Source: Callorhinchus milii
Taxonomy: Eukaryota
Reading direction: 5' to 3'
Length of the DNA: 64,000 nt
NCBI RefSeq assembly: GCF_018977255.1
Contig: NW_024704742.1
Coordinates: 109,308,001-109,372,000, forward strand
Positions 8,501 through 56,005 of the stretch are shown here, piece after piece (the stretch's first letter is position 1; every line of letters starts with the position of its first letter). The notes under the pieces are model-generated. The model saw only the letters and a list, made by a program, of their open reading frames with translations, searched no databases and was not told where the DNA came from. The position numbers and the translations under genes are program-made.

Positions 8501-8783
8501 GTAGTGAATGAAGCAATAGGTATCAGATTGAAATGGTGCTTTAGAGAAACCAGTCATTGGGACAGGGAACTCTCCCACTCAGCTCCTGTTTTCAGGTCGT
8601 AGCTGAATAAGCAGCAGGAAAGCTTGCCAGATAGTGCTATTGATGGCAAGCTATGTAGTTTAACTAGTTATTCTCCAGCAGTACCCCAACCCAACTCGAG
8701 CGAGGGTCCCCAAGCCCTGGCACCTACCAACCTGCTCCTAATAATAATAATAATACAGCACCTTGGGATGTCCTCCTGACGTG

Positions 8784-9591
8784 AACAACAACAACAAGAT
8801 TACATTTGTATAGCGCCTTACACGTCGGGAGGAAGGCCCAGGGTGCTGGAGAGTGTACAGCAGTTCAGATCCGAGCTGGGGTCAGGGGGGAGAAAGGGAG
8901 GGGAGTGGAAGGGGCATGGTTGAAGAGGATGGTTTGGAGGTGGGACTTGAAGGAGGCTACGGAGGGGGCAAGGTGGAATGACTGGGGGATGGAATTCCAG
9001 AGGTTGGGGGCAGAGTGGCTGGAGGCTCTCCCGCCAATGGTGGGGCAGGTGGGTCGGAGGACGTGGAGCTGGCCGGAGCCGGCTGAGTGGAGGAAACGGG
9101 TGGGTTGGTAGGGGGTTAGGAGGTCACAGAGGTAGGGTGAGGCAAGGCCATGCAGGGCTTTGTAGGTGAAGACCAGGATCTTGAACTGGATCCTCTGAAG
9201 GATAGGGAGCCAGTGGAGTTGGGTGAGAATGGGGGAGATGGGATCATGGAGTTTGGTGTGGGAGAGGACACGGGCTGTAGAGTTCTGGATTATCTGCAAC
9301 CTGTGGAGGGAGGAGTTGGGAAGGCTGACAAGCAGGGCGTGAACAAGAGTTTCAGCGGCCTGAGGGGTGAGGTAGTGGCGGAGTTGGGCAATGTTACGGA
9401 GGTGAGGGAAGGCAGAGCGGGTCATGGCTTGAATGTGGGGGAGAAAAGACAGTTGAGAGTTGAACAAGACACCTAGGTTCCTGACTGGCTTGGTGAATTG
9501 AAGTGTGCAACCATGGCGGTTGATGCTGCCAGAGCCTGAGGTGCAGAGGCGCTGGCGCGAGCCAATCAGGAGGGCCTCAGTCTTGTTCACT
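8784..9591 (-). mobile_element. L2 3' fragment nested in another L2-type tail
   Basis: ORF 8865-9647 is the L2 C-terminus. GTGAA is duplicated at 8781-8785 and 9592-9596, splitting a + strand tail (ttgggatgtcctcctgacgtgaa | aggcgcc...gttgtt). Confidence 0.9.
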
Positions 9592-11221: not shown

Positions 11222-11662
11222 CTCGAATTCAAGATCCTCACCCTCACCTACAAGGCCATTCACGGCCTTGCTCCCTCCTACCTCTCCGACCTACTATCCC
11301 CCTACCTACCTGCACGTACCCTCCGTTCCTCTGGCTCCGGTCTGCTCCACATCCGCCGCCCCAACCGCCTTACCATCGGTGGCCGGGCCTTCAGCCTCTC
11401 AGCCCCAGGCTCTGGAACTCTATCCCCAGTGCCTTCGCCGCCTCCTCCCTTTCCTCCTTCAAGGCTGGTCTCAAGACCTTTCTCTTTGACCGTGCCTTCA
11501 GCTCCCCTCTCGACTCTCTACCCCCTCCTCGCTCCCTCCCTTCCCTCCCCTCACCCTGACCATTTCCCCCCTGCTCGGGTCCTGACCCAACTGTACAGCG
11601 CCTTGGGACGTCCTCCCGACGTGAAAGGCGCTCAATAAATGGAATCTTGTTGTTGCTGTTGA
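11222..11662 (+). mobile_element. Young L2 3' fragment
   Basis: Near identical to 27630-28050; (TTG)n tail. Confidence 0.9.
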
Positions 11663-18529: not shown

Positions 18530-19815
18530 ACTGGTCCCCTCCTCTTTAATATCTATGTGCTCCCTCTTGGTGACATCACCCGCAGATATGGGGTCAACTT
18601 CCACATATATGTGGATGACACCCAACTCTATCTCTCTGCCTCCACTCTTGACTCCAGGACCACTGCTTTCCTGACAGAATGTCTGTTGGACATCAAGTCC
18701 TGGATGAGAACAACAACAACAACAAGATTCCATATATAGAGCGCCTTTCACGTCGGGAGGACGTCCCAAGGCACTGGACAGTTGGGTCAGGACCCGAGCA
18801 GGGGGGAAATGGTCAGGGTGAGGGGAGGGAAGGGAGGGAGCGAGGAGGGGGTAGAGAGTCGAGAGGGGAGCTGAAGGCACGGTCAAAGAGAAAGGTCTTG
18901 AGACCGGCCTTGAAGGAGGAAAGGGAGGAGGCGGCGAAGGCACTGGGGGATAGAGTTCCAGAGCCTTGGGGCTGAGAGGCTGAAGGCCCGACCACCGATG
19001 GTAGGGCGTTTAGGGTGGGGGATGTGGAGCAGACCGGAGCCAGAGGAACGGCACTGACAGCATCACTATCCAGAGATGCACACTCCACCTCACTAAGCCA
19101 GTCTAGAACCTTGGCGTCTTGTTTGACCCTCAACTATCCTTTCTATCCTATATCCGTGCCATTACCCGCTCTGCCTTCCCCAACCTCCGCAACATCACCC
19201 GGCTCTGCTATTTTCTCACACGCAGGCTGCCAAAACCCTCATACACGCATTCATAACATCGAGGCTTGACTATGCAAACTCTTTGGGCTGCATAGGCTGC
19301 AGATCATCCAGAACTCTGCAGCCTGTGTCCTCTCCCCCACCAGGCTCCATGACCCTATCACCCCCATCCTTGCCCAACTCCACTGGCTTCCCATCACACA
19401 GAGGATACAGTTCAAGATCCTGGTCCTCACCTTCAAAGCCCTCCATGGCTTTGCTCCCCCTACCTCTGTGACCTCCTAATCCCCTACCATCCTGCCCACT
19501 CCCTCCGCTCAGCAGGCTCCCAGCTGCTTCACGTCCCCCACCTTGCACACCCCACCATTGGTGGGCAGGCCTTCTGCCACTCTGCCCCCACCCTCTGGAA
19601 CTCCATGCCACAGTCCCTCCACCTTGCCCCCTCCTTTGCCACCTTCAAGGCCCATCTGAAGACCCTCTGACCATGCTTCTGATCACCCTTCTTTCACCCC
19701 TGCCCTCCGAACGCCCCAATCCACCCCCAGCTCAGATCCGAAACACTGCCTGTCCAGCGGCTTGGGCCATTCTCCCAATGTGAAAGGTACTACACAAATG
19801 TAATTTTATTGTTGT
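18530..19815 (+). mobile_element. Older L2 fragment interrupted by a young minus-strand L2 3' end (about 18709-19050)
   Basis: [14 protein letters not shown]...YVDDTQLY at 18530-18707, then an inverted young 3' end, then the older copy resumes at about 19055 and runs to its tail. Confidence 0.88.
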
Positions 19816-22646: not shown

Positions 22647-22761
22647 GGGAATAACATGCTTGGAACAAGTAATACCAATCTCACTTCCACAAGCACAGTG
22701 ATCTACCAGCTGAAAATTCTGCTAAAGAGTGGACACAATCTGGCAGTACGGGATCGTGGAG
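22647..22761 (+). CDS. MCTP1: MCTP1-like coding exon (start of C2A): GNNMLGTSNTNLTSTSTVIYQLKILLKSGHNLAVRDRG(G)
   Basis: gtgcag acceptor and gtagga donor; 115 nt, phase 0 to 1. Matches the MCTP1 motif GTSN...YQL.I.L..G..LA.RDRGG and joins in frame to 34664. Confidence 0.9.
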
Positions 22762-23376
22762 GTAGGACACAATGCAGCTTGTGAGCAGTTTGGTGGAATA
22801 GTTATTTGATAACAGTACACTTATCGGTTTGCAGTTTTAATCAGTAAACATTAGTACTTTCTCCAGGTAGAGGGAAAATCAATCAATTCCCATTGTTAAA
22901 CATTGTTGCCTCTCCTTTTCTTGATCATTTTGTAATACAAGTCATAAGGTTGCCACAGATGTTACTTGCTGCGTGCTGCTCTCTATGTGTCACACAAAGG
23001 CAGTGATGTACGTGGCGACTTTACAACCTGAAATCGGTCATTTTTGTCATTGAAAATGGACTTGAAGAATTGTTTCCACTTTCTGAAATGCAAAGAAAAA
23101 GGTCTATGTCTAGAACCAGGCAAGATTTATTCCTCAGAATACCACAGGTAGTTTGACAATAGAAAAAATCCAAACCCCCAATTGATTAACATGGATATTT
23201 GTAGTGCATTGCTGTGTGCAAATTGTCTGCCGCATTGGCCTACAAAATATATAGTCACTATGCTTTACAGTAAATCCCCGGTGAAAAGCTTTGAGATGTC
23301 CTCCTGATGTATCTGGCACTATGTCAAATGTAAGGATTATTGTCATAACAATAATGTGGCCTAGATAAAATATCTG

Positions 23377-23745
23377 GAGTCTTGTAGGTCAGTGGTTAGA
23401 ATGCTCGCCTCGCAAATGAGAGACCTGGGTTTGATTCCCGGAAGGCGAAATGTTGGGCAAGTTTCCTTACTCCACATGCCTCTGTTTACTAGCAGTAAGT
23501 AGGAACCCAATTGTTAGTGGATTGGTGGATTGTTTTTCTGGGGGTAATAATTCCTTCCTCCCCCAAAAAATAATAATTTGGTCACTTCAGTCCATAACTG
23601 TTTGTGGGATACTGCTGTGTACAATTGGCTGCCACGTTTCGCCCACAAAATATACAATTGATTCCTTGAAGTGTTTTGAGACATCTCGAAGACATGATAA
23701 GGCGCTATATCAAATGCAAGGATTATTATTTATTATGATTATTAT
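23377..23745 (+). mobile_element. tRNA-SINE, long subfamily
   Basis: tRNA head, then gcctctgtttactagcagtaagtaggaaccc domain, then tail. Related copies at about 668-885, 4693-5101, 15830-16065, 21040-21375(-), 26312-26597+28058-28142 and 50685-51010. Confidence 0.88.
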
Positions 23746-25917
23746 TACTCACATAAACTTGCTGATTACTTCGCTTTGGGTTATTTATATTGTATTAAGT
23801 TGAGAGCAACAGGATGTAAAGAGAATATCAATCACTTGGATTGCTTGTAGTATGCGCCTCACAGCAATCTTAATGAGCTGTGCCTTATTTATCGATCAAT
23901 GCTTAAAGACTCCAGAAAGGCTCTGACATCACAAACCACAAGGTGAGGGGGAGACTGTAATTTAATCTTTGTTCTTTGTTACTCACTACACTATAATCAT
24001 CTGTCCTTTCATTGTTATACTTGGCACAATACCGTCATTGTGTGTCAGGCGTCATCAAATCATAAAGGCCTGCAATACAAGGGTCAAAATAATTACTATA
24101 TCAAATCAAGCTCTCATAGGTAAAAATGGCACAAACAGTATATCCTGTGAAACAGTTTGAAACCTCTCAACCGCATGATAAGGTGCTATATCAAATGCAA
24201 GGATTATTAATTATTAGTGTTATATTGTTAAGAAATGTGTGTATGTTTGAGGACCTCTGACGTCATGATGCTAATTATGCAATGAAGCCAGATGTTTAAG
24301 TTTGCGTGAAATATCGTTGTTAGAATTGTTCTTGCGCCAACTTTTCCATTTCAATCACTATGCAAAGCAATAGGAGATCCAACTCTGAATAAGGATCTGT
24401 CAAATATGATGTTGGAGAACCAGCTGTATTTACATTGCAAGGTACCTCCAGATCCTGCTGAAGGGAAACTGTAATTAAAAGCAACTTTATACCAATTCAA
24501 TAACTGGGAGTTACAAATGTTTATCCGTAATTTATTCTGTCTCATGTACCCCTTTGGCACGGAGCAAGAAAGATTTAAGCAGGTATCAGTTTTCTCTCTT
24601 CAGAGCAACTAAACAAACAAATTGCATTTTTATAGCGCCTTTAATGTCGAGAGAACATTACAAAGCACTAGACACTTGGGAGTTTGCACCTGAGTGGGGA
24701 TTCAAGAGGGGTAGAGGCTGAGAGTGTGGGTATGGGAAGGTGACTGAAGGCATGGTGAAAGAGGAAGCTCTTGAGACGGACCTTGAAGGAGGTGAGGAAA
24801 GGGGCGAGGCAAAAGAACTCTGGGATGGAGTTCCAGAGAGTGGGACACTCCAAGACATTCCCCACTGAGGTGAGGGTAATGCGATTCAGCCAAATCTGAA
24901 CAGACTGAATTGTTGTATGGACAAAACCTTTGTAATTCACCTTGAGAGAAACACAGACTTCAGAATTGAATCACCCCCCCTAATTCTGAAAGTGCTTTGA
25001 GATGTCCTCCCGATGTGGAAGGTGCTATATAATTGTACAACTCATTAAATCCTTTATTATCAAAGGCCATTAAAATGATCATTAATAGCTGAGATCTGAC
25101 TTTTTCAGGGTGGATACGTAACTGTTTAAACAACTGGGTTCCTACTTACTGCTAGGTAAACAGAGGTGTGTGGAGTAAGGAAACTTGCCCACATCAAGCT
25201 ATTTTAGGTTGAAGATATTGTAGAAAATAAGAGCTGTGCATAGCACACTTTTTGTCATTGATCTTCTGGTTCTGTCGGAATTGACAATGATATTAAGTAT
25301 CCTGGGATTTGTAAGTGGCTGCTCTGTTTCCGTGTTCTGGGGATATTATGATCAGGAGACAACTAACTGCTAATTGATGATTGAAATCTTATACAAAACA
25401 AGCTCATTCTAAAAGGTACAGAGACACCAGTGATCCATTGGCATATGTCATTATAGCCCAATACTCAATAGTTTTTTTTTCTTTTTGTGTGATACATGCA
25501 TACATGTATATCTGTTATACTAATAGATGAGACTGCTGGAGAATTAAATATTTTCATCATATACACAGAGCTGACACAAAGTGCTCCTCAGTTTAGTCTG
25601 GTTTGGGAGATATATTTACATAGTTGTAGCGCTCAATCAGCAGTACCAATGTGGCATTTCCACTTCTCATTATCTCTGTTTACATCACCTCTCTGGGAGG
25701 GATTCTGGAGAGTTGGAATTTGTTCTGCCACTTGGTGTAGTTTATAATAAACTCATTTGATATAACGTTTTACATGCTGGTAGGAGGTCTCCAAGGACTT
25801 CACGGGAGTTAATTTGAAGGGTAATGAATACATTTTGTAGTCAAAGTTTACTTTAGGAAAATCATAGTCAGTCACTACAGTTCACGGTAAGAGGAAAGTC
25901 TTGCTCAGATTTTAAGA

Positions 25918-26180
25918 GCATAAAAACATAAGAAATAGGAGCAGGAGTAGGCCATTCAATCCCTCGAGCCTTCCCCGCCATTTAAGATCATGGCTCATCT
26001 ACTAACCTAATTCCATTTACCCGCCCTATCCCCATATTCCTTAATCCCTTTAGTTTTTAAAAATCTGTCGATCTTAGTCTTGAATATGTTCAATGATTGA
26101 GCATCCACAGCCTTCTTGGATAGAGAATTCCATAAATTCACTACCTGAGTGAAGAAATGTTTTCTCAACTCAGTTCTAAA
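25918..26180 (-). mobile_element. CR1 3' fragment
   Basis: FRTELRKHFFTQVVNLWNSL. Confidence 0.8.
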
Positions 26181-26600
26181 GGTACAAGAACACCTAAATC
26201 CCTCTGAATACTTTACAGTACAATCCTGCACAGAAAACAGGATCATTTCAAGATCGGTTTAGATAAAGAAGGCTGTTTGGCCCACCTGATCTCATCTTTC
26301 CAGAATACCCTAGAGTCCTGTAGCTCAGTGGTTAGATCACTCGCCTTGCAAACAATTCCCGGCAGGATGAAATGTTGGACAAGTTTCCTTACTCCACACA
26401 CCTCTGTTTACCTAGCAGTAAGTAGGAACCCGATTGTTAAGTCAATTGGCGGATCACTTTTCCAGGGATAATAATTCCTTAAAAAAATTATAATCATAAT
26501 TTGATCACTCAATCCACGACTGTTTGTAGGACACTGGTGTGCGCATTTGGCTGCCACAATTCTCCAACAAAACACACAGTCAATTCACTTTACAGTACAG

Positions 26601-28057
26601 TACCGGCCCATCTCCAACCTCCCCTTCCTGTCCAAGGTCCTTGAAAGAGTTGTCGCCTCCCAGCTGCGCTCTTTCCTCTCCACCCATTCATTATTCGAAC
26701 CCCTTCAGTCGGGTTTCCGTACTGCCCATAGCACAGAAACTGCCCTGGTCAAGGTCACCAATGACATCCTGACCATCTGCTCCCTCTGCCTCCTCGTCCT
26801 GCTCGACCTATCAGCAGCATTCGATACGGTCGACCACGCTATCCTCCTCCACCCCTTGTCCTCCCACCTCAACCTTCAAGGCCCTGTCCTTGAGTGGTTT
26901 AGATCGTACCTCTCCCTCCGTCTTCATTTTGTCTCTGCAAACGGTTTTTCCTCCACCCCCCGCACTGTCTCGTGTGGTGTCCCTCAGGGCTCTGTCCTCG
27001 GTCCCATCCTCTTCACCCTCTATATGCTCCCCCTGGTGACATCATCCGCAGACATGGGGTTAACTTCCACATGTATGCGGATGACACCCAACTCTACCTT
27101 TCCTCTTCTACCCTCAACTCCACGACCACCGATGACCTGACAGCTGCCTGTCCGACATCGAGTCCTGGACGAGAGACAACTTTCTTCAGCTCAACGTGCG
27201 TAAAACTGAGGCCCTCCTGATTGGCTCACGTCAGCGCCTCCGCACCTCAGGCGCTGACAGCATCAGCATCCAAGGCTGCACTCTCCACCTCTCAAAGCCA
27301 ATCAGGAACCTCGGGGTTCTGTTCGACCCTGAGCTGTCCTTTCTTCCTCATATCCGCACCACAACTGGCACCGCCTTCCATCACCTCCGAAACATCGCCA
27401 GACTACGGCACTACCTCACCCCTCACGCTGCTGAAACTCTGGTCCACGCCTTTATCACCTCAAGGCTGGACTATGGGAACTCTCTCCTCGCCGGCCTTCC
27501 CGCCACCTCCCTCCACAAGCTGCAGGTCATTCAGAACTCTGCAGCTCGTGTACTGTCCCGCACCAGGCTTCGCGACCACATCACTCCCACCCTCGCTCGC
27601 CTCCACTGGCTCCCCATCCCCCAGAGGATCGAGTTCAAGATCCTCATCCTCGCCTACAAGGCCATTCACGGCCTCGCTCCCTCCTACCTCTCCGACCTAC
27701 TATCCCCCTACTTACCTGCCCGTACCCTCCGTTCCTCTGGCTCCGGTCTGCTCCACGTCCCCCGCCCCAACCGCCCTACCATCGGTGGTCGGGCCTTCAG
27801 CCTCTCAGCCCCGAGGCTCTGGAACTCTATCCCCCAGTGCCTTCGCCGCCTCCTCCCTTTCCTCCTTCAAGGCCGGTCTCAAGACCTTTCTCTTTGACCG
27901 TGCCTTCAGCTCCCCTCTCGACTCTCCACCCCCTCCTCGCCCCCTCCCTTCCCTCCCCTCACCCTGACCATTTCCCCCCTGCTCGGGTCCTGACCTTGGG
28001 ACGTCATCCCGACGTAAAAGGCGCTCTATAAATGGAATCTTGTTGTTGTTGTTGTTG
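26601..28057 (+). mobile_element. 5'-truncated young L2 (RT to 3' tail) inserted into a tRNA-SINE
   Basis: [22 protein letters not shown] and YADD; (TTG)n tail. TACAGTA is duplicated at the left junction (26591-26602 region) and at 28058-28064. Confidence 0.95.
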
Positions 28058-31000
28058 TACAGTATGTTCTGTGAAGCGCTTTGAGACGTCTAGAAGACGT
28101 GATAAGACACTATATCAAATGCAAGGATTATTATTATTATTACCCACCCTATTGTCTTCCCATCACAGCATCAATCTGTTCTTTTTAAATACATCCATGT
28201 ATTTTAAATAAGTGCAAAGAAGCAAATCGGCACAGATGGGCCGAATGACCTCCTTCTGTGCTGTACAATTTTATGATTCTATGAAGTATCCTGGCAAAGA
28301 CGTGATGTTCCAGTGCTCCGCTGCCCTGCAAGTTGGCCATTTTATCTTTTACTGTGGATGCATGTCAGCGCTGTCTCTCGGTTCCAGATGGGTGTCTGAT
28401 TTCCGGGTAAGTGTGTGCTTGTGCTGTAATACCCGCTATCATGCTTTGCTCTAATGTAGGTTGGGATTTTATGGCTCCCATACCCCTCGTCTTTTCTTTT
28501 TTATCAGCAGGTTCAAAACTTGGGGACAAACATTCCTCACTATTTCCTATGCAAATAGCTTCATTGTCTGTTTCCATTAACAATTCACATCTCAAATAGA
28601 CAGAGGAGAACTTTTTAAAAGCAATACACTACAATTTACACGCATATTGCGTCTTTCACATCAGGAGGATGTCCCAAAGCCGTTGACATTTCTTGCTGGC
28701 ACCGGAGGTTTGGGTGGGAGGTGAGAGGGGGTGAGGAGGAGCAATGGTAAAGTAACATAAGCAGCAGTGATGTGTAAAAAAAAGAACAAATTATTTTCTC
28801 GTTGTTTCTGTTTTAAATTACTTTACCAATAGAATGGAATGGTAAAATGAAGCACGACAACCATAATTCTAAGTAATGTAATATTCATATCATTTTAACA
28901 AGCCTTCAGAGTGATGAATTATAAAATTACTTTTTATGAATGATGGTATCCGAGATGCAATTTATTTTTCAGTTTGTTGAGGTGTAGTCCTTCAAATGGC
29001 TGAATAGAATGAAAAAACTATTATCTGTTTTGTTTTCATGCAAAGATACATCTGACTCAGAAAAATAGTTGCGAGACCTGTGCCAATAAATGGGCTCCGG
29101 TTCTGCATGTCAATCGTGTGAGCAATGATTGAAAAGACCGTGTCAATGTTTGTGTAATTCCATCAGATACTTAGAGACAGGGAGTCAAACTGGAATTGAT
29201 GAGTGTGACTCAGGTAGTTTATCATACTAAGTGAATGATACAGAGAAGAGATGTAGCGAACAAATGAGAGACTGCAGAAATGGTTCTATTGACTGACTGG
29301 CTGACTCTATGGATTTATATTCTGTACATAGCTCATTATAATCTGAATTCTGAATAATCTAAGAAAGGTGGTACATAAAAGATCAGTCATTTCACTGACT
29401 GATAAAGGTTAATTCATTGCATAGTGTCTAAACAATATTGCTTCAAGAATTCAAAATAGTTTGAACTGTACCTAAACTTGGTGTGTTGACACACTGTGCC
29501 CCTGCTAATCACATTTGCAAGTCCTTGCTGATGCTGATTAACTCCTCCATCTGAGATTTAAGAATGAATTGACTGTGTGTTTTGTGGGCAAAATGGGGCA
29601 GTGAATTGCGCGCAGCAGTGGCCGACAAAACATTCGTGGATTGAGTGACCAAATTTTTTTTGGGAGGGATTATGACTCCTGGAAAGCGATCTAAGGTTCC
29701 ACGCCCTCCCCCACCACCCCCACCGAGCACCATGTCATCAGGTTGGGCTATGAATATTTTCAGCGGGCTATTAAATCTGGTATCAAGGGAGAGATTTTTG
29801 AAACCTCCGAATAGCACTGTTAAGATAATGTGTGACTATAATAAGAAATGGTGTGTGAGTATAATAGAAAATTATAGTAAAACTTAGATTTCATAAAGCA
29901 TCTTACTGCATTGTTGAAACATCTCAAAGAGAGTGTGACAGAGGAATAAACTTCCAACTTCCGTGAAGGTACATTGCAGCCAAATTCGAGGTCTGGATGA
30001 AGAGAGAAAAAAATAAGAAGAATTTGGTTACTCAATCCACGACTGTTTGTAGGACACTGCTGTGCGTAATTGGCTGCCATGTTTTACCCACAAAATATAC
30101 GGTCAATTCACTTTACAGTATATTCTGTGAAGCACTCTGAGATGACTCAAAGACACAATAAGGAGTTATATCAAATGCAGGGATTATTATTTTTAAAAAT
30201 GGCTTTCTATGGTTATTGGCGTTCAATGTATGTGTAAAGCAGCGTGTTTTTTGTGACTCATTTTAAAAAAAAGTGCTTCAATCAAGAACTGGACACCAAT
30301 CAGACTGGTATGGAGTTCGAGCCCTAACTGCTAATTGAGCATAACATGGTAATGAGCACCAGACTACAGCTGGGTGCTGGAGAGAAGGAGACAAGTCGGG
30401 AGAAGATGGTTATAAAAAGATGGTGCAAGTTTGTTTTCTGGGTGCATAATAATAATTCCTCCAAAAAAACAAAAACAATAATAAATTGGTCATTTTCAAT
30501 CCGCGACTGTTTGTGGGACACTGCTGTGCGCAATTGGCTGCCGCGTTTCGCCCACAAATATACGGTCAGTTCACTTTACAGTCTATTCTGTGAAGCTCTT
30601 TGAGACGTCGAGAAGACATGAAAAGCGCTATATCAAATGCAAGGATTATTATTATTATATTGTATAGTGATTCTTTCCAGGGATGTTTCCAGTGAGTTGG
30701 GTGGGAGAGAAGCTGGGTGGGGAAGGGAACGATGATCGAAACTGTTGTCAAAGAGGTAGGTCTTGAAATATGGCTTGATTAAGGTGAGGGAGGGAGAACA
30801 TTTTTGGGACTCGGGAGAGAGTTCCAAACAACAACAAACGACACTTGTATAGCGCCCTTCACGTTGGAAAGATGTCCCAGAGCGCTGGACAGTCTGGGGT
30901 TTTGGACCCGAGCTGCGAGTTGGGGTCACGAGAGGAGGAGGGCAGTGGGGGTGGGGCTGGGAAGGTGGCCTAAGGAACGGTCAAAGAGGAAGGTCTTTAG

Positions 31001-31685
31001 ACGGAACTTGAAAGAGGCAAGAGAGGGGCTGAGCTGGAGGGATTGCGGGATAGTTCCAGAGTGTGGGGGCAGAGATGCTGAATGCCCAACCACCAGTGGT
31101 GGGGCAGGAAGTGCGGGGGACCTGAAGCAGGCCAGTGTCCACAGAGCAGAGGGAGCGGACAGGCTGTTAATATAAGGTTAGGAGGTCGGAGAGATAGGGA
31201 GGAGCAAGACCATGGATGACCTTGAAGGTGAGAATGAGGGTTTTGTACTCGATTCTCTGCAGGATAGGGAGCCAGTGAAGCCAGGCAAGAACGAGGGTGA
31301 TTGGTTCGCGGAGCCTGGTACGGGAGAGGACACAAGCTGCAAAGTTTTTAATAATCTGCATCTTGTGGAGGGAAGAGTTGGGAAGTCCAGCGAGCAAGCA
31401 GTTGGGATAGTCAAGCCAGGACATGATGAAAGCGTGGATCAGGGTCTCCACGGCCTGTGGTGAGAGGCAGTGGCGGAGGCGGGCAATGTTGCAGAGGTGT
31501 GGAAAGGCGAAACAGATCATGGCATGAATGTGGGGTTTGAAGGATAGCTGAGGGTCAAACGGGACACTGAGGTTTCGTATTGGCTCAGTGAGGTGAATGG
31601 TGATAGTGTCAGCAGCTGAGGTGAGGAGGTGCTGCCAGGAGCCAAGCAGGAGGGCCTCTGTCTTGCCAACATTGAGCTGGAGGAA

Positions 31686-32127
31686 CAAAACCCAAAATAC
31701 TGCAGATGTTGGAAATCTGAAAACAAAAACAGAAGTCACTGGGAACACTCAACAGGTCAGGCAGCATCTATGGAGAAAGGAAAGTGAGTCAACATTTCCG
31801 GTCCACTACTCTTCGTCAGAACTGGGGCATGTTGGGAGGACATGTTGGGAGGACATGCCCCAGTTCTGATGAAGAATCGTGGACCTGAAACGTTGACTCG
31901 CTTTCTTTTCTCCATAAATCCTGCCTCACCTGCTGAGTGTTCCCAACGACTTCTGTTTTTGTTTCAGATTTCCAGCATCTACAGTATTTTGTGGCGGGGT
32001 TTTCCATTAGAAGTGCTCCACAGTTGTACTTTTTTTTAAAGTTTATTAATTATATTTATTTACAGAGCTCCCCCACATAGTCCAGTAAACCTCCCAGTGA
32101 GTGTTCCCAGTGACTTCTGTTTCTGTT
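31686..32127. mobile_element. Non-autonomous Penelope-like palindromic element with two minimal hammerhead ribozyme motifs, inserted in an old L2
   Basis: About 140-bp inverted arms (31693-31832 / 31853-31991) with CTGAYGA...GAAA cores on both strands. Flanked by ttga(g/a)ctggaggaa at 31672-31685 and 32128-32141. Confidence 0.75.
31861..31898 (+). ncRNA. Minimal type I hammerhead ribozyme motif
   Basis: agtt-CTGATGA-agaatcgtggacct-GAAAC-GT-T-gact. Helix I is AGUU/GACU, helix III is the palindromic ACGU, helix II is imperfect. Confidence 0.6.
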
Positions 32128-34663
32128 TTGAACTGGAGGAATTGGCTCTCATCCGGGACCTGATGTCAGAAAGACAATTTGCCAGGACGTCAACTGTCCT
32201 GGAGTCGAGGATGGAGGCGGCGAGATAAGAGTTGGGTGTCATCCGCACACATGTGGAAATGTGGAACAGACAGGACAGGGGACATGAAACAGTGTTTGCT
32301 GAATGAAGGCAGCAGCCTGGTTAGTGTGGTTGAAGGAGGTTGCAGAGGGTAGTTGTGGTGAGACTGTCTGTGGAGGGATTTGAGGGATAATGATAATAAT
32401 TATCCTTACATTTGATATGGCGCATTTCATGTCAGGAGGATGTCTTAAACACTTCACAAGATATAAGGGAAAGTGTAGTGACTGTATATTTTGTAGGGCC
32501 AATGTCTTTAACAAATCCTAAAAAATGTTTTATGGTAGCAAGGTTATATTTTTTGAATGAAGTACATCAGCAATGAACAGTTGTACACTGATTCAGATAG
32601 AAAGTGGAATAAGGTGTATGAAGTAAAAACTGATTCCGAAAGTGTAAACTGGTGATTTTTGCTCGGTGCGCTTTATGCGCACACTTAGTGTATCCTGAAA
32701 GAAAAAGTACGGCTGCAGCCACCCCACCTTCTCATCTCAAGCAGGTTGTTTTCCCTGAGAGAGGACGAGAGCCTTTTTTTCTTCAGCCTGTGTATATTTT
32801 GAAGGAGAATTTAATGGTGGCAGACGTATGGCTCCAGGAGGCAGGATGAACAAAGACAGCCTCTTTTGATAAGAGGGTGTCAAAAGTGTTTAAGAAGGCC
32901 TGAAGGAATGCAAATGTGAAACAAAGGAAAAACCAGCATGAGCTGGTCAGTAGTTTCTGTGAAACCATTGGTGATACCTGGTCAGGGGCTGGCATGAGAG
33001 TGCACGATAAAAGTGTAATAATACCCAATACATCGATAGGAGAGCAAGAGACCGCCACAGGAGGAGAAGGGCAAGGATTGACGTATCTAAGCGGTCACCA
33101 TCTCTCCCGGTGGAAGGATTTAATCACCTTTGAATCCGAACTATGCATCTCGGTTGTATGTATAACAGCTTATCAATGTCACTTTGATTGTATTAAAATA
33201 CTAATATCGTGCTGAGGAATGCTGGTCAGCCTTGTTATATTGCATTGTGAAGAACTCAAAAACTTACAAAAGAGACTGATAGCATTTTTCTATCAGTAAC
33301 AGAAACATCTATCAATTATTATAAAGGCAGTTTCTGCATCAAACTGGCTCGTGGGGAACAGCAAATGTTGATTTGACCACAATGGTTCAATAATTCTGCA
33401 GAAGACATTAACAAATGAATTGTAGCATAAAGTCCACATAAATAATGCATTTATCAGCAGGGACTTGAGCTACATTCAGTGCACTTACTATATCAGATGA
33501 GCCAATTAAGTGCTTTTTGCAATCATCATCACTCTTCAAGAATATTCTTATCCAGAGATGCTCTAACTGAAATGTTAGCAATGAAGTGTGCAGCTTCTGG
33601 TATAACACTTTAGTTACAGTTAATTGTATCAAGAGTTTGAAAATACTGTGAAATAGAATGGGTGATATTTGACCAGGGCCTAATGCATGCCCGTTCCAAC
33701 ACTAAAATTCCTTTGTGAAATGTCATTTCTGGCATTTCTGTATGTGAGTGTAAAATGCAAAATCGCATGATACAATACAATACAAAATTACATTTGTAAA
33801 GCACCTTTCACGTCGGGAGGGCGTCTCCTGCTTGGGAATTTTTTTGTTAATAAAACATTCAAAATATGTTTTGACTTCCTATTGTATCTTGCCTTCCTTA
33901 ACACGTTAACTTTGAAGTAATGTTGACATGTTAGGCAATGAAGCTAACTATAAAGATGTGTACAAACCTTATTTTTGGTAAAAGCAGTGAAGCGGGCACA
34001 AGGGATAGATTTGCCACACCAACACAACGATTGCTATTTTCACTTAATGTGAGCAATTCTGTGAGGGGAGTTGCTGTTAGCAACATCGCTGTTGTTGGAA
34101 ATCCTAAACAATATATTGCAAAGACATTAATTCGACATAAATAAGTGATCTCAGCCATGCAGATATAGGAAGTGTTGAGCAGTCAGGAGCTTCCTCACAG
34201 GGAAGTCATCCCAGGACTTGTGCACCACCCAATGTTCAGTTGTAAAATGGCACACACATTCTGGGAGGTCTGAGAAAATAACAACAACAAATTGCCTTTA
34301 TATAACACCTTTTATGTCAGGGGGATGTCCCAACGTGCTGGAAAAGCTGTTTAAGGAGCTAGCTAGGTGTACTTGCTGGGAATGCAAAGAAAAGAAACCG
34401 AGACAAAAGGATATTAGGGAAAAAATATTTAAAATGAGTGGAATACTTCTGAAATGTAATATGGTATCATCACCCAGGATATGTTTAAAAATGGACCTTT
34501 CATTGATAAGTGCTCCAGGACCCTAGACCACATGAAAGGTGCTGCATAAATGCGAGTTGTTGTTGTGTTTCATGCAAGATAGTGTATTGGAGTGCTGAAA
34601 GTATTCACTTGCTCATTTAAAATTAATATTGTTAACCTTGAACTTTCTCTTCTGCTGTTTCAG

Positions 34664-34806
34664 GTACCAGTGATCCATATGTGAAGTTCAAAATAGCAGG
34701 AAAAGAGGTTTTCAGGAGCAAAACCATTCACAAGAACCTCAACCCAGTGTGGAATGAGGAAACCACTCTTCTAATTGAAAACATTGCAGAGCCCTTGTAC
34801 GTAAAG
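34664..34806 (+). CDS. MCTP1: MCTP1-like coding exon (C2A): (G)TSDPYVKFKIAGKEVFRSKTIHKNLNPVWNEETTLLIENIAEPLYVK
   Basis: Polypyrimidine tract with tttcag acceptor and gtaggg donor; 143 nt. Carries the C2 signatures SDPYVK and LNPVW. Confidence 0.95.
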
Positions 34807-37139: not shown

Positions 37140-37477
37140 GTATTTGCTATTAGAGCTGGGTTATGCATTTTAATCTCTCATTGATATAAGCTCCAGTTTT
37201 TCATCAGCCCTCAGTATAAGATAGTGGATGAAGTTTGTGCAGTTGATGTAATTTATATGGATTTTCAAAAAGCATTTGATAAAGTGCCACATAAGATACT
37301 TGTAAGCAAAATAGAAGCCCACAATATTAAAGGGACAGTGGCAGCATGGATACAGAACTGGCTGGGAGACAGAAAGCAGAGAGTAGTAGTAAACAGTGAG
37401 AAGGATAGTAGCAGACTGCAAGGGGACATAGACAGACCGGTAAAATGGGCAGACACATGGCAGATGAAGTTTATCTG

Positions 37478-38490
37478 GTTTCCTCCTCTTCACCCTCTAT
37501 ATGCTCCCCCTTGGTGATATCATCCACAGACATGGGGTAAATTTCCACATGTATGCGGATGATACCCAACTCTACCTCTCTGCCTCCACCCTGAACTCCA
37601 GAACTACTGGCGTCCTGATTGTCTGCCTGTCCGACATCAAGTCCTGGCCGAGGGCCAACTTTCTCCAACTCACCGTCAGCAAGACCAAGGCCCCTCTAAT
37701 TGGCTCGCGCCAGCGACTCCGCACCTCAGGCGCTGGCAGCATCAGCCTCCATGGCTGCACCCTCAACCTCACTAAGCCAGTCAGGAACCTGGGAATCTTG
37801 TTTGAACTGAACTGTCCTTTCTCCCCCACATGCGCGCCATGACCAGCACTGCCCACCACCACCTCCACAATATTGCCAGACTCCGCCACTGCCTCACCCC
37901 TCAGGCTGCCGAAACCCTCACCCACTCGTTCGTCACATCAAGGCTCGATTACGGGAACTCCCTCCTCATCGGCCTCCCCAACTCTTCCCTTCACAAGCTG
38001 CAGGTCATCCAAAACTCTGCAGCTCGTGTACTCTCACGCACCAGGCTCCGTGACCCCATCACTCCCACCCTCGCCTGACCTCACTGCCTCTCCATACCCC
38101 AGAAGATCGAGTTCAAGATCCTCGTCCTCAACTTTAAGGCCATCCTTGGCCTTACCCCCTCCTACCTCTCTGACCTGCTGACTCCCTACCAACCTGCCCG
38201 CTCCCTCCGTTCATTGGCTCCGGCCTACTCCATGTCTCCCGCCCGACCCGCCTTACTCTGGAACTCCATCCCATGGTCCCTTCTCCTCGCTTCTTCCCTT
38301 GCCTCCTTGAAGACCTCTCAAGACCGTTCTCTTCGACCGTGCCTTTGATCTCCCTCCGACCTCTCCGCCTTCCCTCACCCCTTCACCACCCCTCCCTCAT
38401 GCTCAAGCCCCGACACCTGACTGTTCAGCGCTTTGGGACGTCCTCTCGACGTGAAAGGCGCTCTATAAATGTAATTTTGTTGTTGTTGTT
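37478..38490 (+). mobile_element. L2 RT-to-3' fragment inserted in CR1
   Basis: [25 protein letters not shown]; (TTG)n tail. Confidence 0.9.
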
Positions 38491-38551
38491 AATGTAGAGA
38501 AATGTGAAGTGATGCATTTTGGGAAGAAGAATGAGGAGAGGCAATATACAC

Positions 38552-41500
38552 CAACAACAACAAGATTGCATTTATAGAGCGCCTTTCACGTCGGGAGGAC
38601 ATCCCACGGCGCTGTACAGTTGGGTCAGGACCCGAGCAGGGGGGAACTGGTCAGGGTGAGGGGAGGGAAGGGAGGGAGCGAGGAGGGGGTAGAGAGTCGA
38701 GAGGGGAGCTGAAGGCTCGGTCAAAGAGAAAGGTCTTGAGACCGGCCTTGAAAGAGGAAAGGGAGGAGGCGGCGAAGGCACTGGGGGATAGAGTTCCAGA
38801 GCCTCGGGTCTGAGAGGCTGAAGGCCCGACCACCGATGGTAGGGCGGTTAGGGCGGGGGATGTGGAGCAGACCGGAGCCAGAGGAACGGAGGGTAAGTAG
38901 GGGGATAGTAGGTCGGAGAGGTAGGAGGGAGCAAGGCCGTGAATGGCCTTGTAGGTGAGGATGAGCATCTTGAATGGGGATGGGGAGCCAGTGGAGGTGA
39001 GCGAGGGTGGGAGTGATGTGGTCGCGAAGCCTGGTGCGGGACAGTACACGAGCTGCAGAGTTCTGAATGACCTGCAGCTTGTGGAGGGAGGTGCCGGGAA
39101 GGCCGGCGAGGAGAGAGTTCCCATAGTCCAGCCTTGAGGTGATAAAGGCGTGGACCAGAGTTTCAGCAGCGTGAGGGGTGAGGTAGTGCCGTAGTCTGGC
39201 GACATTCCGGAGGTGATGGAAGGCGGTGCCAGTTGTGGCGCGGATATGAGGGAGAAAGGACAGCTCAGGGTCGAACAGAACGCCGAGGTTCCTGACTGCC
39301 TTTGAGAGGTGCAGAGTGCAGCCTTAGATGCTGATGCTGTCAGCGCCCGAGGTACGGAAGCGCTGACGCGAGTCAATCAGGAGGGCCTCAGTTTTTCGCA
39401 CGTTGAGCTGAAGAAAGTTGTCTCTCGTCCAGGACTCAATGTCAGACAGACAGGCTGTCAGGACATCGGTGGTCGTGGAGTTGAGGGTAGAAGAGGAAAG
39501 GTAGAGTTGGGTGTCAGCCGCATACATGTGGAAGTTAACCCCATGTCTGTGGATGATGTCACCAGGGGGAGCATATAGAGGGTGAAGAGGAGGGGACCGA
39601 GGACAGAGCCCTGAGGGACACCGCACAAGACAGTGCGGGGGCTGGAGGAAAAGCCGTTTGCAGAGACAAAATGAAGACGGTGGGAGAGGTACGACCTAAA
39701 CCATTCAAGGACAGGGCCTTGAAGGTTGAGGTGGGAGGACATGCGGTGGAGGAGGATAGAGTAGTCGACCGTATCGAATGCGGCCAATAGGTCGAGGAGG
39801 ACAAGGAGGCAGAGGGAGCCCTGGTCACAGATGGTCAAGATGTCATTGGTGACCTTGACCAGGGCGGTTTCTGTGCTATGGGCAGCACAGAATCCCGACT
39901 GGAGGGGTTCGAAAAGTGAGTGGGTGGAGAGGAAAGAGCGCAGCTGGGAGGCGACGACTCTTTCGAGAACCTTGGACAGGAAGGGGAGGTTGGAGATGGG
40001 CCGGTAGCTTGATAGTTGAGACTCATCAAGGGAGGGTTTTTCAATATGGGAGTGATGGTGGCAGTTTTGAGGGAATGGGAACAGAGCCAGAGGAGAGGGA
40101 CAGGTTAATGGTGTCTGTGAGAAGTGGCAAGGAGGTGGAGCTGGGAGATAAGGAGTGGAGTGGGGTCCAGGGAGCAGGTGGTGGGTTTCAAGGACAGGAT
40201 GAGTTTGGTGACAGAGGGTGGGGAAACGGGTTTGAAGGTGTGTAGGGGAGGATGGGTAGGAGTCGGAGTGTGGGAGGGAAGGGGTGGGAGGTGGGTGGAA
40301 GTTGGAGGGGGAGTGACCGCGGAGCGGATTCCCTTGATTTTGGATTCAAGGAAATCCAGCATCTCCTTGCAGTGAAGGTTGGAGGAGATGACCTGCGCGG
40401 GGTGGCGGGGGGGACGGATGAGTCGGGATGTGTAGGAGAACAGAAGCGTCGGGTTGTTCTTCGCCTCCAGGATTATCCTGGAGTAGAAGGACGACTTGGC
40501 CGAGTGGAGCGGTAGATTTTGAGGAGGTCCAGCCAGATTTGCCGGTGGACCGTTAGGCCAGATTTGAGGCAGGTGCGTTCAGCGGCCCGCACCTGGCTCT
40601 TCAGTGAGCGGAGGTGGGTGGTGAACCAGGGGGAGGAGCGAGAATAAGAGACAGTACGGGAGGTGATGGGGGCAAGAGTGTCGAGTGTGGAGGAGAGGGT
40701 GTTGTGGAGGAGGGTGAGAGCAGAAGAGGGGTCAGTGAAGGATGAAGGCCAGAGGGAGAGGAGTTCAGAGGACTCCAAGGCAGCGGTTAGGGATTGAGGG
40801 GGTAACTTCTTTCAGGGGCGGTAGAAGATGGTGGTGGGTCTGGTGGAGGTAGGGAGGGGTGTGGACATGGTGAAGGAGATGAAGTGGTGATCAGAGACGG
40901 CCGTGTCGGTAATGGTGACATCTGAGACACTGAGGCCCCGAGTGATCACCAAATCGAGTGGGTGGCCGTGAATGTGAGTGGCGGAGTTGATATGGAGGGA
41001 GAGGTTGAGCGAGGAGTGGAGGGAGGAGAAGTCCGAGGAGATGGAGCAGGAGGGGGTGAAGTGCAGGTTGAAGTCGCCCAGGATGATGAGGCGATCAGAG
41101 CAGAGGCAGAGAGATGTTAGGAGGGTAGAAATATCGGAGATGAAGGTGGTAGAGGAGGAGAATTTTGATTGAGAGATGGGAGGGGTGGGAGAGGGTGAGG
41201 TGCTCAAAAGAGGGGAAAGAGCCAGAGGAGTAGGGGGATAGGGCAAGTGGTGTCCTTGAGATAAGGGCTACACCACCGCCACGGCGGTTGGGGTGAGGGA
41301 TGTGGTGAGAGGTGTAGCCGGGTGGTGTGGCCTCCGTGAGGGGGAAGGTGTCGCCTGGGGTGAGCCAGGTTTCAGTTAAGGCCATGATGTCAACGCTCTC
41401 ATCAAGGATGAGATCGTTGATGACCAGGGACGTATTACTGAGGGAGCGGACATTTTATAGTCCAATGTGGAGGGAGCGGTTGACAGAAGGGTGTGTGGGG

Positions 41501-41870
41501 AGGGAGGGGGGTCCAGGTTGTGAGGCAGGGGTGGGGGGAATGGGGATGAGGGAGGAGAGGTTGGCTCCCCGGGTCTGTGTCCGGGGTGGCTGGCGAGTGT
41601 GATGGGGAATGGGGCAGTCGGTGTGGCTGCTGCTGGACAGTTAACGCCGAGTGCCACGGTGAGCCCGGCGGAGGATTCCCAGGCTGGAACAGAGGGAGGT
41701 TGTGGGAGGATCAAGTGGGGATAGAAGGCGAGGGAGATGGAGAGAGAGGAGGACAGAGCGGGAGAGATGCAGAGGGTGAGGGTTTGGGGGGATGGAGGGG
41801 GTGAGGGGGTTCGGGTCAGAGCTGCAGCCATAGTGCGCACACGGGGACCGGGAGCGAGCGGTCAGGTGGG
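38552..41870 (-). mobile_element. Near full-length L2 (LINE2) retrotransposon, disrupted APE-RT ORF
   Basis: APE motifs (ALTETW, GDFNLH, LDLVIT, SDHH) and RT motifs ([31 protein letters not shown]) spread over several frames. 3' end ggg(ac/at)gtcctcccgacgtgaaaggcg followed by (TTG)n. Confidence 0.93.
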
Positions 41871-43299
41871 CGACATTAACCCATAGGCTGGGGCAGCCAA
41901 CCCAACAGGAACATAGTGTTCCCTGGGGGGGGGCGCAGAGGATTTTTTTTTTTTTTGCGTGCGCAAACTCCTAAATGTGAACTATGATGTCAGTGGTTCC
42001 CCCGCTCCACCCCACCACCACCACCCCCTAGCTGAACTCCCTGCCGCCTCAAGCTTTATATTACCTGAAATATAAGCTGCCGGTACAATCTTAAAGGGGG
42101 TGAAGGAACAGAGAGACCTGGGGTTTCATATAAGTAAATCTTTGAAGGTGGCAGGACAGGTAGATAAAGCTGTTAAAAAGTGTACGGGATACTAGGCTTT
42201 ATAACTTGGGGCATAGAATACAAAAGTCAGGAAGTTATGATGAACCTTTATAAAACACTGGTTAGGCCTCAGCTGGAGTACTGTGTTCATTTCTAAGCAC
42301 CACACTTTAGGAAGGATGTCAAGGCATTGGAGAGGGTGCAAAGGAGATTTACCAGGATGGTACCAGGAATGAGGGACTCCAGTTATCAGGAGAAGCTAGA
42401 GAAGCGAGGATTATTCTCCCTGGAGCAGAGAAGGTTACGAGGAGAAAGAATAGAAGTTTTCAAAATTATGAGAGGATTCGATAGGGTAAGGGAAAACTAT
42501 TTCCACTGGTGGGTGGGTGGGTAACTCGAGGGTACTGATTTAAAATAGTTGTTAAAAGAAACAGGGGAGGTGAGGAGACATTTTTTCACACAGCGAGTTG
42601 TTCGGATCTGGAATGCATTGCTTGAAAGGGTGGTGGAAGCCGATTCAATAACAACTTTTAAGAGGGAAGTAGATAATTATTTGGGGAGGACAAGTTTGCA
42701 GGGCTATGGGGAAAGAGCGGGAGAATGGGATTGATTTTGGTGGCTCTTTTTGATGCACCGAATGGCCTCATTCTGTTCTGTATAATTATGTGATTCTATG
42801 ATGATAACAGAAAACTCTAGATATGAATATTTTAAGAGATGTTATTTGTGCAGGACAAGGGAATAGAGGAGTATGGAAGGAGGCTCATGTGGAGTATAAA
42901 CACCAGCACAGATTAGTTGGTTAAATAGCTTGTTTCTAGCCTGTAGCATCTACGTATCGAATTCTAGCTAAAACTCTGTGAACTGGATGAGCTTCAGGCC
43001 CTAGTATGTCTCTGGGGACATTAAAAGGGTCTTGCATGTCAGTGGGATCCCATGTTGGTGGGACTCTGACCCCACCCCTGGCTAGTGAAGAAACACCACC
43101 CGCGCCCCCCCATAGTGAAGTGTTCCAAATGCAAGGATCATTGTTCCATGAGTGCAGCATCCAGACATCCATCCTCCCTGGAAACGTGTTCCATTCATTA
43201 ATTACCTTCTGGGTAATGAAAAAATGTTTTGGGGTTTGCTGAAATTGCTCTTTGCAACTCTTAAACTATGTCCTCTTGTACTGATATACTTTTTTTCAG

Positions 43300-44196: not shown

Positions 44197-44452
44197 ATTC
44201 CAGGCAGGGCGAAACCTTGGGCAAGTTTCCTTACTCCACGCCTAATAATAATCCCTCCAAAACAAAAATCAATAATAAATCGTTCAGTTTCAATCTACGA
44301 TTGTTTGTGGGACATTGCTGTGCGCAATTGGCTGTCGCGTTCGCCCACAAATATACAGTCAATTCACTTTACAGTATATTCTGTGAAGCGCTTTGGGATG
44401 TCTAGAAGACGTGAAAAGCGCGATATCAAATGCAAGGATTATTATTATTATT
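44197..44452 (+). mobile_element. 5'-truncated tRNA-SINE, short subfamily
   Basis: Same body; tail ttgggatgtctagaagacgtgaaaagcg. Confidence 0.88.
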
Positions 44453-45365
44453 ATATCTTAAGTCTGTGACCACGGGTCACAGACACACCTACCAGCGGAA
44501 ACAGCTTTTGCCTATCTAGCCTGTCAAAATCTTTCATGATCTTGAAGACCTCTATCAGGTCCCCGTGTAACCTTCTCTGCTCTAATGGGAAAAGTCCTAA
44601 CTTCTCCAGCCTGTCCTCATAGCTAAGGTTCCCCATTCCTGGTATCATTCTCGTGAATCTCCTCTGCACCCTTCCCAGTGTCTTAATGTCCTTCCTGAGG
44701 TAAGGTGCCCAGAACTGGACGCAGTACTCCAGCTGAGGCCTAACCAGTGTTTTGATTAGATTAACCATAACCTTCCTACTCTTATACTGTATGCCCCTAC
44801 TAATAAAGCTCAGTACACCAGGAAGACAGGTTTGCAGGGTTATGGGGAGAAAGCTGGTGAGTGGGGTTAATAAAAGTCAGTTGCTCTGTCAAAGAGCCGG
44901 CACAAACTCGATGGGCCGAATGGCCTCCTCCTGTGCCGTAACATTCTATGATTCTATGAAATGCCTTTTTTACTGCCTTATCTACCTGCCCCGCTACCTT
45001 TGATGATTTGCTTACTTGAACACCCAGATCTCTCTGTACGTTCACCCCCCCTTAAGATTGAGCTACCAAGTCTATATTGCCTCCTATCATTTTCCTACCT
45101 AAGTGTATCACCTCACACTTATCCACATTGAAATCCATCTGCCACATGTCAGCCCATTCCACCATTCTGTGTATGTCTGCTTGCAGTTGGTTACAGTCCT
45201 CCTCACTATTTACTACCCTACCTATCTTTGTATCATCTGCAAACTTGGAAATAGTGCTCTCTATGCCCAAGTCCAGATCATTAATATACATTAGAAAGAG
45301 CAGTGGTCCCAATACCGATCCCTGGGAGACACCGCTGCACACCTCCTTCCATTTCGAGAAACATC
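44451..45365 (-). mobile_element. CR1 RT fragment interrupted by a + strand CR1 3' tail (about 44820-44960)
   Basis: GVSQGSVLGP, KFADDTK and LVRPQLEYCVQFW. The inserted piece ends gatgggccgaatggcctcct...attctatgattctatga. Confidence 0.88.
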
Positions 45366-45376
45366 CATATACATCA

Positions 45377-45678
45377 TGACAGGCTGTTTCAACTTGTCCA
45401 GAATAGTAAAACCAGAGGACACAGCCTGGGATTGAAGGGGGGAAAATTCAGAACAAATCTACGCAAACACTATTTCAATGAGCGAATAGTGAACCTGTGG
45501 AACAGGAAGTGTTGATTCTTTCAAACACAAATTAGATAGTTTTCTTTTAGGAAATAACATTATGGGATATAGTACGTGGGTAGTATGGGACATCTGTGCA
45601 TGCGACCGCTAGGAAGGTGGAAAGCAAACTAGATGGACCTTGGGCTTTTTTCATCCAACATTTCTTATGTTCTTATGC
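45377..45678 (+). mobile_element. CR1 3' fragment of a different family
   Basis: KTRGHS..L...F...RKHYFNERIVNLWN; (ttcttatg)2 tail. Confidence 0.75.
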
Positions 45679-48367: not shown

Positions 48368-49238
48368 TTGGACATCAAGTCCTGGATTAGGGCAGTTGAA
48401 TGTGAACAAGACTGAGGTCCTTCTGATTGGCTCGCGTCAGCACCTCAGGCTCTGGCAGCATCAATTTTCATGGTTGCACACTACAACTCACCAAGCCAGT
48501 CAGGAACCTCGGTGTCTTGTTCGACCCTCAACTGTCTTTTCTCCTCCACATTCAATCCATGACCCCCTCTGCCTTCGCTCACCTCTGTAACATTGCCCGA
48601 CTCCGCCACTACCTCACCCCTCAGGCCGCTGAAACTTTTGTTCATGCCTTCATCACCTCCAGGCTCGACTATGCAAACGCCCTGCTTGTCGGCCTTCCCA
48701 ACTCCTCCCTCCACAGGCTGCAGATAATCCAGAACTCTGCAGGCATGTCCTCTCCTGCACCAAACTCCGTGACCCCCATCTCCCCTATTCTCACCCGACT
48801 CCATTGGCTCCCTATCCTTCAGAGGATCCAGTTCAAGATCCTGGTCCTCACATACAAAGCCCTCCATGGCCTCGCCCCACCCTACCTCTGTGACCTCCTA
48901 ACCCCCAACCAACTCGCTGTTCCCTCTGCTCAGTCGGCTCCAGCCTGCTCCACGTCCCCCAACCCACCCGCCCCACCATTGGCAGGAGAGCCTTCAGCCA
49001 CTCTGCCTCCAACCTCTGGAATTCCATCCCCCAATCACTCCGCCTCGCCCCCTCCTTAGCCTCCTTCTCCCACCTCAAGACCCTCCTCTTCAACCATGCC
49101 ATCGGCCACCCCTCTTCCCCTCCCCTCCCTTCCCTCCCCTGACCCCAGCTCGGGTCTGAAATGCTGCACTCTGTCCAGCGTCTTGGGACATCCTCCCTAC
49201 GTGAAAGGGCTATACAAATGTAATCTTGTTGTTGTTGA
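48368..49238 (+). mobile_element. L2 3' fragment starting about 50 bp after the micro-exon
   Basis: ORF 48427-49059 is the L2 C-terminus; tail present. Confidence 0.9.
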
Positions 49239-55680: not shown

Positions 55681-56005
55681 GGAGGTTCACTGGATTATGT
55701 GGGGGAGCTCTGCAAATAAATATAATTAATAAACTTTAAAAAAAAGTACAACTGTGGAGCACTTCTAATGGAAAACCCTCCCACAAAATACTGTAGATGC
55801 TGGAAATCTGAAACAAAAACAGAAGTCGTTGGGAACACTCAGCAGTTCAGGCAGCATCTATGGAGAAAGGAAAGTGAGTCAACATTTTGGGTCCATGACC
55901 CTTCGTCAGAACCGGTTATGATGAAGGATCTTGGACCTGAAATGTTGACTCATTTTCCTTTCTCCATAGATGCTGCCTGAGCTGCTGCATGTTCCCAGTG
56001 ACTTC
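55681..56005. mobile_element. Second copy of the palindromic hammerhead element, in the opposite orientation
   Basis: Same arms and the same unique flank (reverse complement of 31991-32095). Centre is accggt. Cores are degenerate (CTGACGA...AAAA on -, ATGATGA...GAAA on +). Confidence 0.75.

Follow-up and report, generated by a model that had tools for sequence, protein, structure and literature searches.

A palindromic insertion at positions 31686-32127 of a 64 kb stretch of Callorhinchus milii DNA (64,000 nt in all; the window) is best read, from its arms and motifs, as a decayed head-to-head pseudo-LTR (pLTR) stump of a very abundant Penelope-like family. This insertion, copy 1, interrupts an old L2 element within an intron of MCTP1. 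We consider it probable that templated repair later patched the stump with ~165 bp copied from a second insertion of the same family (copy 2) that lies 24 kb away and has a different centre and junction.

Copy 1 is a true insertion into L2, because it is flanked by a target-site duplication (31672-31685 and 32128-32141, plus strand) that matches at 13 of 14 positions, because paralogous L2 copies hold the 14-mer singly and because contigs of the public run X1 contain uninterrupted L2. A duplication as good was seen in 1 of 1000 random flanks. The 14-mer occurs once in each of the three paralogous L2s that can be aligned to both sides of copy 1, the two alignments sharing exactly 14 nt, and at 31673 26 X1 contigs depart into L2 sequence without the insertion. 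The left duplicate sits inside the reverse-transcriptase remnant of the L2, which lies on the minus strand, and the L2 resumes after the right duplicate. An initial annotation of this sequence had proposed both the 14-bp duplication within L2 and a position inside a host intron, and both proposals were confirmed. The C2-domain exon at 34664-34806 (plus strand) has its best match in MCTP1 among Callorhinchus milii proteins (96-100%), and MCTP1 exons lie on the plus strand at 22647, 34666, 37054, 43298, 50087, 53348 and 63659. The exon upstream of copy 1 (22647-22761, plus strand) has AG/GT borders and reads in frame into the next one. Copy 1 is therefore within intron 22762-34663 for the MCTP1 isoforms that use the 22647 exon; one database isoform begins at 34386, downstream of copy 1. 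Copy 2 (55681-56018 with its flank) is also intronic, between the MCTP1 exons at 53348 and 63659.

Several other features of the locus were recorded. Since the first 20 residues of the database MCTP1 model P0003 match L2 repeats at 11504-11563, 18809-18868 and 38647-38706, the start of this model is probably a mis-annotated repeat. The segments 34141-34242 and 34386-34523 match the N-termini of models P0003 and P0004, and are possible alternative first exons of MCTP1. L2 remnants are dense in the window (8775-9590, 26505-28055, 37468-42000, 48402-49237 and others) and include one long copy at about 38650-41860; a short repeat resembling an L2 tail (e.g. 2845-3000) occurs more than 20 times. 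Minus-strand frames at 44451-45447 resemble a CR1-type LINE reverse transcriptase.

Copy 1 is organised around two inverted arms (31693-31832 and 31853-31991) that are 88.6% identical over 140 nt, in agreement with the ~140 bp originally described. The left, inverted pLTR arm (31686-31832, minus strand) has the long end, with a tail at about 31686-31720. Its decayed hammerhead core consists of CTGACGA (31819-31813) followed by GAAATGTT, which ends at 31791. In the direct, plus-strand arm, the core (31866-31894) consists of CTGATGA (31866-31872) followed by GAAACGTT, and the nominal cut falls after its end at 31894. These opposed motifs are 47 nt apart and lie exactly where the initial annotation had placed them. 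A loose pattern, CTGANGA-N6-30-GAAAYGTH, was matched twice in the 64 kb window, once per arm and on opposite strands, compared with 0.10 matches expected; at least two matches were obtained in none of 100 shuffles. The arms meet at a head-to-head junction (31828-31857), where the tandem centre noted previously is a 13-bp duplication (31828-31840 and 31841-31853) around the palindrome ACATGT. Capture of an L2 tail at this centre, which resembles 57189-57207 (17/19, E 0.02), was considered and rejected: matches between the left arm and other contigs extend to 31839, and so part of the copy 1 junction is family sequence. The insertion has no ORF, as had been stated, and the third partial arm that had been reported is present from 32098 to about 32127.

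The arms thus have the form of pLTRs placed head to head, and the suggestion of inverted partial LTRs with Penelope-type minimal type I hammerhead motifs was upheld, since the motifs exceed chance and the family consensus is complete. Both window copies have inverted ends that meet at a palindrome, and the junction differs between them. MITE or foldback DNA elements are defined by terminal inverted ends that are fixed and by an invariant interior; an element of this kind was rejected for copy 1, as the ends are unequal and the centres differ between the two copies. Loose contig ends in the four public runs (24 of 1709 rows listed) cluster at 31721/31725 and at 31991/31993 or 31684/31686. Those at 31721/31725 have tail-like letters in part, and true short ends are mixed there with A-run length differences, so that loose-end support for a tail on one arm is mixed.

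This organisation has precedents among Penelope-like elements (PLEs), for which adjacent inverted pLTRs, an optional tail on one arm and palindromes at head-to-head junctions are described (PMC3846280; PMC8557442). Copy 1 resembles the endonuclease-containing (EN+) PLE insertions of Arkhipova et al. (2013, PMC3846280) and Craig et al. (2021, PMC8557442) in its head-to-head arms, palindromic junction, target-site duplication and extension of ~30-35 nt on one arm only, and in having entered a non-LTR element. In contrast to the rotifer elements, with reported duplications of 8-10 bp, copy 1 has one of 14 bp, and it differs from EN+ PLE insertions in having no ORF remnant and a putative later patch from a paralogue. 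Copy 1 was assigned to the PLEs by its hammerhead motif, arm layout, tail and target-site duplication, and may belong to the Poseidon or the Neptune clade. In the Anolis Poseidon element PAc, reverse transcription is reported to start at two adjacent internal sites, explaining the tail, and in vitro both strands of the target are cleaved and extended (Frangieh et al. 2024, PMC11167929). By analogy, a double-strand cut with extension could yield two opposed copies. As described for PAc, the Callorhinchus element ends at internal sites downstream of the ribozyme, with an optional tail. The PAc ORF starts in stem II (PMC11167929), whereas the candidate ATG here lies 44 nt further on; at 55857-55780 (minus strand) a 26-aa frame that runs through the arm end begins with an ATG directly after a pyrimidine-rich AG, and this could be the spliced start of the ORF of the autonomous element. 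We found no account in the literature of this family in chimaeras or of a patch such as the one proposed here; the pLTR family may well be catalogued already in repeat databases (Repbase, Dfam).

Copy 2 (55784-56005), the likely donor, also has head-to-head arms, sense on the minus strand at 55784-55913 and on the plus strand at 55914-56005, which meet without a spacer on a palindromic axis. Its target site is imperfect and begins 13 nt past the conserved arm end: the right copy (55758-55770, minus strand) matches its partner at 56018-56006 in 11 of 13 positions, a match reached by chance in 8 of 3000 cases within 40 nt and in 38 of 3000 within 130 nt. Next to the target site is host flank (55681-55757, minus strand), which continues into sequence that has no other long match in the window. 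The AT-rich segment of copy 1 had been thought unique. It recurs beside copy 2, at 55778-55681, with 95 of 98 positions identical.

We examined the abundance of arms and segment by aligning contigs of the four public runs to 31590-32219. Summed depth, which is not a copy number, was 18,443-1,015,526 over the arm bins in X1 and 22.8-52 over 32010-32093; over the latter interval it was 0 in X5 and X6 and 0-5.9 in X9. Single X1 contigs over the AT-rich segment had depths of 8-15, and the sole variant listed in the segment, 32062 A>G (depth 7.5 of 27.3), is the base of copy 2. The AT-rich segment is therefore nearly single-copy and outside the repeat family, and the arm is hugely repeated. Given this low depth and the 11/13 target-site match at the start of the segment, the best reading of the segment is as host flank of copy 2 preceded by its target-site copy. 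An alternative, that the segment belongs to the family and the two arms represent distinct lineages within a master palindrome, was overturned by the depths and by the target-site duplication of copy 2.

The right arm of copy 1 is a mosaic. In its first 70 nt, four sites group with its own left arm against both copy 2 arms, and no site shows the opposite grouping. One of the four, at 31875/31810, is a derived A (G makes up 93% of the family depth there in X1), and two (31862 and 31879) are CpG-prone. From 31930, the right arm is identical to the copy 2 arm at 62 of 62 positions and has three tail differences from the left arm. This stretch includes a rare A at 31946 that is shared with the copy 2 arm, at a site where G accounts for 96% of the summed family depth in X1. 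Positions 31946 and 31947 set the right arm against the left arm, the other arm of copy 2 and the third piece, the latter three of which read AGT. Hence, the diagnostic bases switch from left arm to copy 2 at about 31930, and the point of entry would lie between 31930 and 31946. The plus-strand half of copy 1 can be parsed on this basis into a putative original 5′ part of the direct arm (31853-31929) and a copied tract, made up of an arm part (31930-31991) and a non-element part (31992-32094). The latter would comprise a 13-nt spacer (31992-32004), the copy 2 target-site copy (32005-32017) and copy 2 host flank (32018-32094), and three extra bases (32095-32097) separate it from the third arm piece. 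In its 30 nt, this piece differs from the left arm once and from the copy 2 arm three times, and it most likely represents the direct arm's original short 3′ end, which the patch would have displaced.

Copy 1 differs from copy 2 at 14 sites over 70 nt and at 5 over the following 165 nt, a contrast reached in 1 of 2000 breakpoint permutations. With CpG-type changes removed, the counts are 7 and 4 and the test is not significant (446/2000). Because of this, rates alone do not establish the relative age of the patch, which the sequence weakly suggests to be younger than the rest of copy 1; what supports a patch is the captured target site together with the diagnostic bases in common with copy 2. 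When 31930-32097 is left out, copy 1 becomes a plain insertion within its target-site duplication, with a left arm reaching 105 nt past the cut site, a right arm reaching 70 nt and a palindrome where they join.

We propose that two events produced this structure. In the first, the family would have inserted only its hammerhead-bearing end into the old L2, with the enzyme presumably supplied in trans by an autonomous Penelope element. Two copies of the end would have been placed head to head, one stopping ~70 nt past the cut site and the other ~100-105 nt (the tail), and their arms would have joined at the palindromic ACATGT with a 13-bp slip, between the 14-bp target-site duplication. In this two-event reading the tail belongs to the left arm only, which ends 105 nt past the cut, compared with the 70-nt position of the third piece. 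In the second event, a break near 31930-31946 in the direct arm would have been repaired on the paralogous arm of copy 2, with synthesis through the rest of that arm, its target-site copy and 77 nt of host flank. Rejoining would have occurred at a weak microhomology (ACCTC/GC, 5/6) with three extra bases, leaving the original right end as the third arm. Entry by long homology, synthesis of 150-165 nt and an exit at microhomology that leaves a few extra bases resemble ectopic homologous repair completed by end joining (SDSA and alt-EJ, reviewed in PMC7407515). SDSA and alt-EJ are described there separately, and their combination in one scar would be a deduction from the single sequence of copy 1.

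The best-surviving alternative, which we regard as unlikely, is a one-step RNA route, in which a Penelope reverse transcriptase would have begun on element RNA at the short end, switched to a copy 2 read-through transcript, taking its flank by 3′ transduction, and switched back. It would account for the single target-site duplication around the whole composite and is compatible with the non-significant age contrast at non-CpG sites, and unrelated DNA captured between pLTRs and flanked by a target-site duplication is reported in rotifer elements (PMC3846280). However, two template switches and a different template for the left arm are needed. The left arm and third piece carry AGT and not the AAC of copy 2, the right arm groups with the left arm over its first 70 nt, and a read-through RNA from copy 2 would be antisense to MCTP1.

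A patch could also have been written from RNA, if the break in copy 1 was repaired on nascent MCTP1 pre-mRNA carrying copy 2, with synthesis by a host polymerase or the Penelope reverse transcriptase; we think this quite improbable. Copy 2 would be in the strand needed to extend the top-strand end of copy 1, a fit that is a one-in-two coincidence, and the tract has no splice junction to separate RNA from DNA. It is very improbable that transfer ran in the reverse direction, or that a third, unseen locus gave the tract to both. The segment depth of 23-52 could cover more than two loci, with single contigs at 8-15, and the copy 2 target-site match is just 11/13; yet at copy 2 the tract contains the target-site partner and runs into non-repeated sequence, and at copy 1 it lies between two pieces of one arm. 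Repair from copy 2 is the preferred reading.

Hammerhead core motifs are present in both arms, but the proposal of a working ribozyme on each strand was not supported. The CUGANGA/GAAA-NUH core is intact in the plus arm, has U at 15.2 (in place of C) in the minus arm, and is mutated in both copy 2 arms (G12 to A; C3 to A). Helix II retains 3 of 5 pairs in the plus arm of copy 1 and 2 of 5 in the minus arm, and over the four window arms 70% of its cells are paired; all four arms have a lesion in the core or in helix II. Because helix II is broken in both arms, the ribozymes of copy 1 are probably dead. None of the four single arms was predicted to adopt a hammerhead fold or folded better than shuffles (z -0.16 to 0.93), and pair counts over the four arms contained no compensatory change (shuffles reached the observed values in 500 of 500), so that the window gave no signal of covariation. 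The covariance-type check that had been suggested returned no hammerhead: an Rfam scan of 30500-33500 with E up to 10 gave nine weak hits, mostly microRNA hairpins and all far below gathering scores, which were set aside as hairpin look-alikes.

The family as a whole gave a different picture. Majority bases in X1 at 31794 (73%), 31799 (84%), 31807 (84%) and 31810 (93%) restore GAAAC, a 5-bp helix II, the extra base after position 9 and a 4-bp helix I, so the consensus has the intact core and helix II that had been named as the test of the ribozyme assignment. In agreement with the minimal PLE hammerheads of Cervera and de la Pena (2014, PMC4209133), the family has no helix III stem, is palindromic at 15.2-16.2, and has the extra base between 9 and 10.1 and the 4-bp helix I. 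Its 5-bp helix II, broken at copy 1, is shorter than the 7-8 bp given for Schistosoma families (PMC4209133). Motif pairs on opposite strands are already reported there at about 100-700 bp (PMC4209133), compared with the 47 nt in copy 1. Minimal PLE hammerheads are described as having low activity even as dimers, with no cleavage by a single motif (PMC4209133), and cleavage as dimers is attributed to small PLE hammerheads by Lunse et al. (cited in PMC6765202). The copy 1 arms cannot form a same-sense dimer because they are on opposite strands. Loose ends at 31803 (77 contigs in X1, 31 in X5), within 31798-31823, hint at a sister subfamily whose helix II and loop differ, perhaps by an A-U for G-C swap in the helix. 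Many arm-arm joints in X6 and X9 suggest further head-to-head copies with other junctions, though repeat artefacts can also give rise to joints of this kind.

Long-hairpin folding, the remaining structural proposal, was borne out by prediction. The plus-strand transcript of copy 1 is predicted to form one hairpin of -233.6 kcal/mol, compared with -179.1 kcal/mol when helix I and an unpaired core are forced, a predicted advantage of about 54 kcal/mol over the ribozyme fold. With its ribozymes decayed since insertion, the locus in host pre-mRNA should fold as one long hairpin without self-cleavage. A 148-nt contig of X5 (guessed to be RNA) spans the hairpin centre (31810-31957) with five other letters, and an X5 contig on the right flank has one in 119. 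The differences at the centre could reflect an allele, another copy or A-to-I editing.

These results bear on the earlier view of copy 1 as a palindromic, non-autonomous, retrozyme-like unit of 442 bp that moves whole and self-cleaves from either strand, which we now consider highly improbable. Two similar layouts 24 kb apart with an AT-rich segment in common, and family-majority bases that form a complete minimal hammerhead, would favour it. In contrast, the AT-rich segment is near single-copy and falls outside the family, the centres of the two copies differ, the copy 2 target-site duplication lies inside the shared segment, each of the four arms has a lesion and the predicted hairpin outcompetes the ribozyme fold. 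Copy 1 does resemble the animal non-LTR retrozymes of Li et al. (bioRxiv 10.64898/2026.07.22.740005), reported there in one chondrichthyan genome, in being non-coding and PLE-related with a type I hammerhead. Retrozymes in that work are, by definition, direct tandem units carrying two or more same-sense ribozymes in succession, whereas the motifs of copy 1 are inverted, one per strand, and damaged. Nor was the whole unit amplified, the AT-rich segment having close to one copy in X1 and little or no depth in the three other runs. Finally, an assembly chimera of two nearby repeat copies is scarcely credible: hairpins are difficult to assemble and no contig among those listed bridges the 32094/32098 junction, but the two tracts differ at five sites, X1 has both bases at 32062, and a contig of X5 spans the centre of copy 1.

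As one of very many decayed Penelope-type stumps, copy 1 has little weight on its own. It shows how such stumps mimic a new palindromic ribozyme element, and in the preferred reading it would be a clean example of short ectopic copying between nearby repeats, in which a target site and host flank were dragged along. If the patch was written from RNA, copy 1 would preserve, as a germ-line fossil, an event of RNA-templated repair between two paralogous repeats of a single transcription unit. If such patches prove common and strand-biased in genes, chondrichthyan genomes, in which these arms are hugely numerous, would be good data for testing RNA-templated repair. The pLTR family itself may offer many head-to-head junctions with which to compare twin-priming and self-priming models of Penelope insertion.
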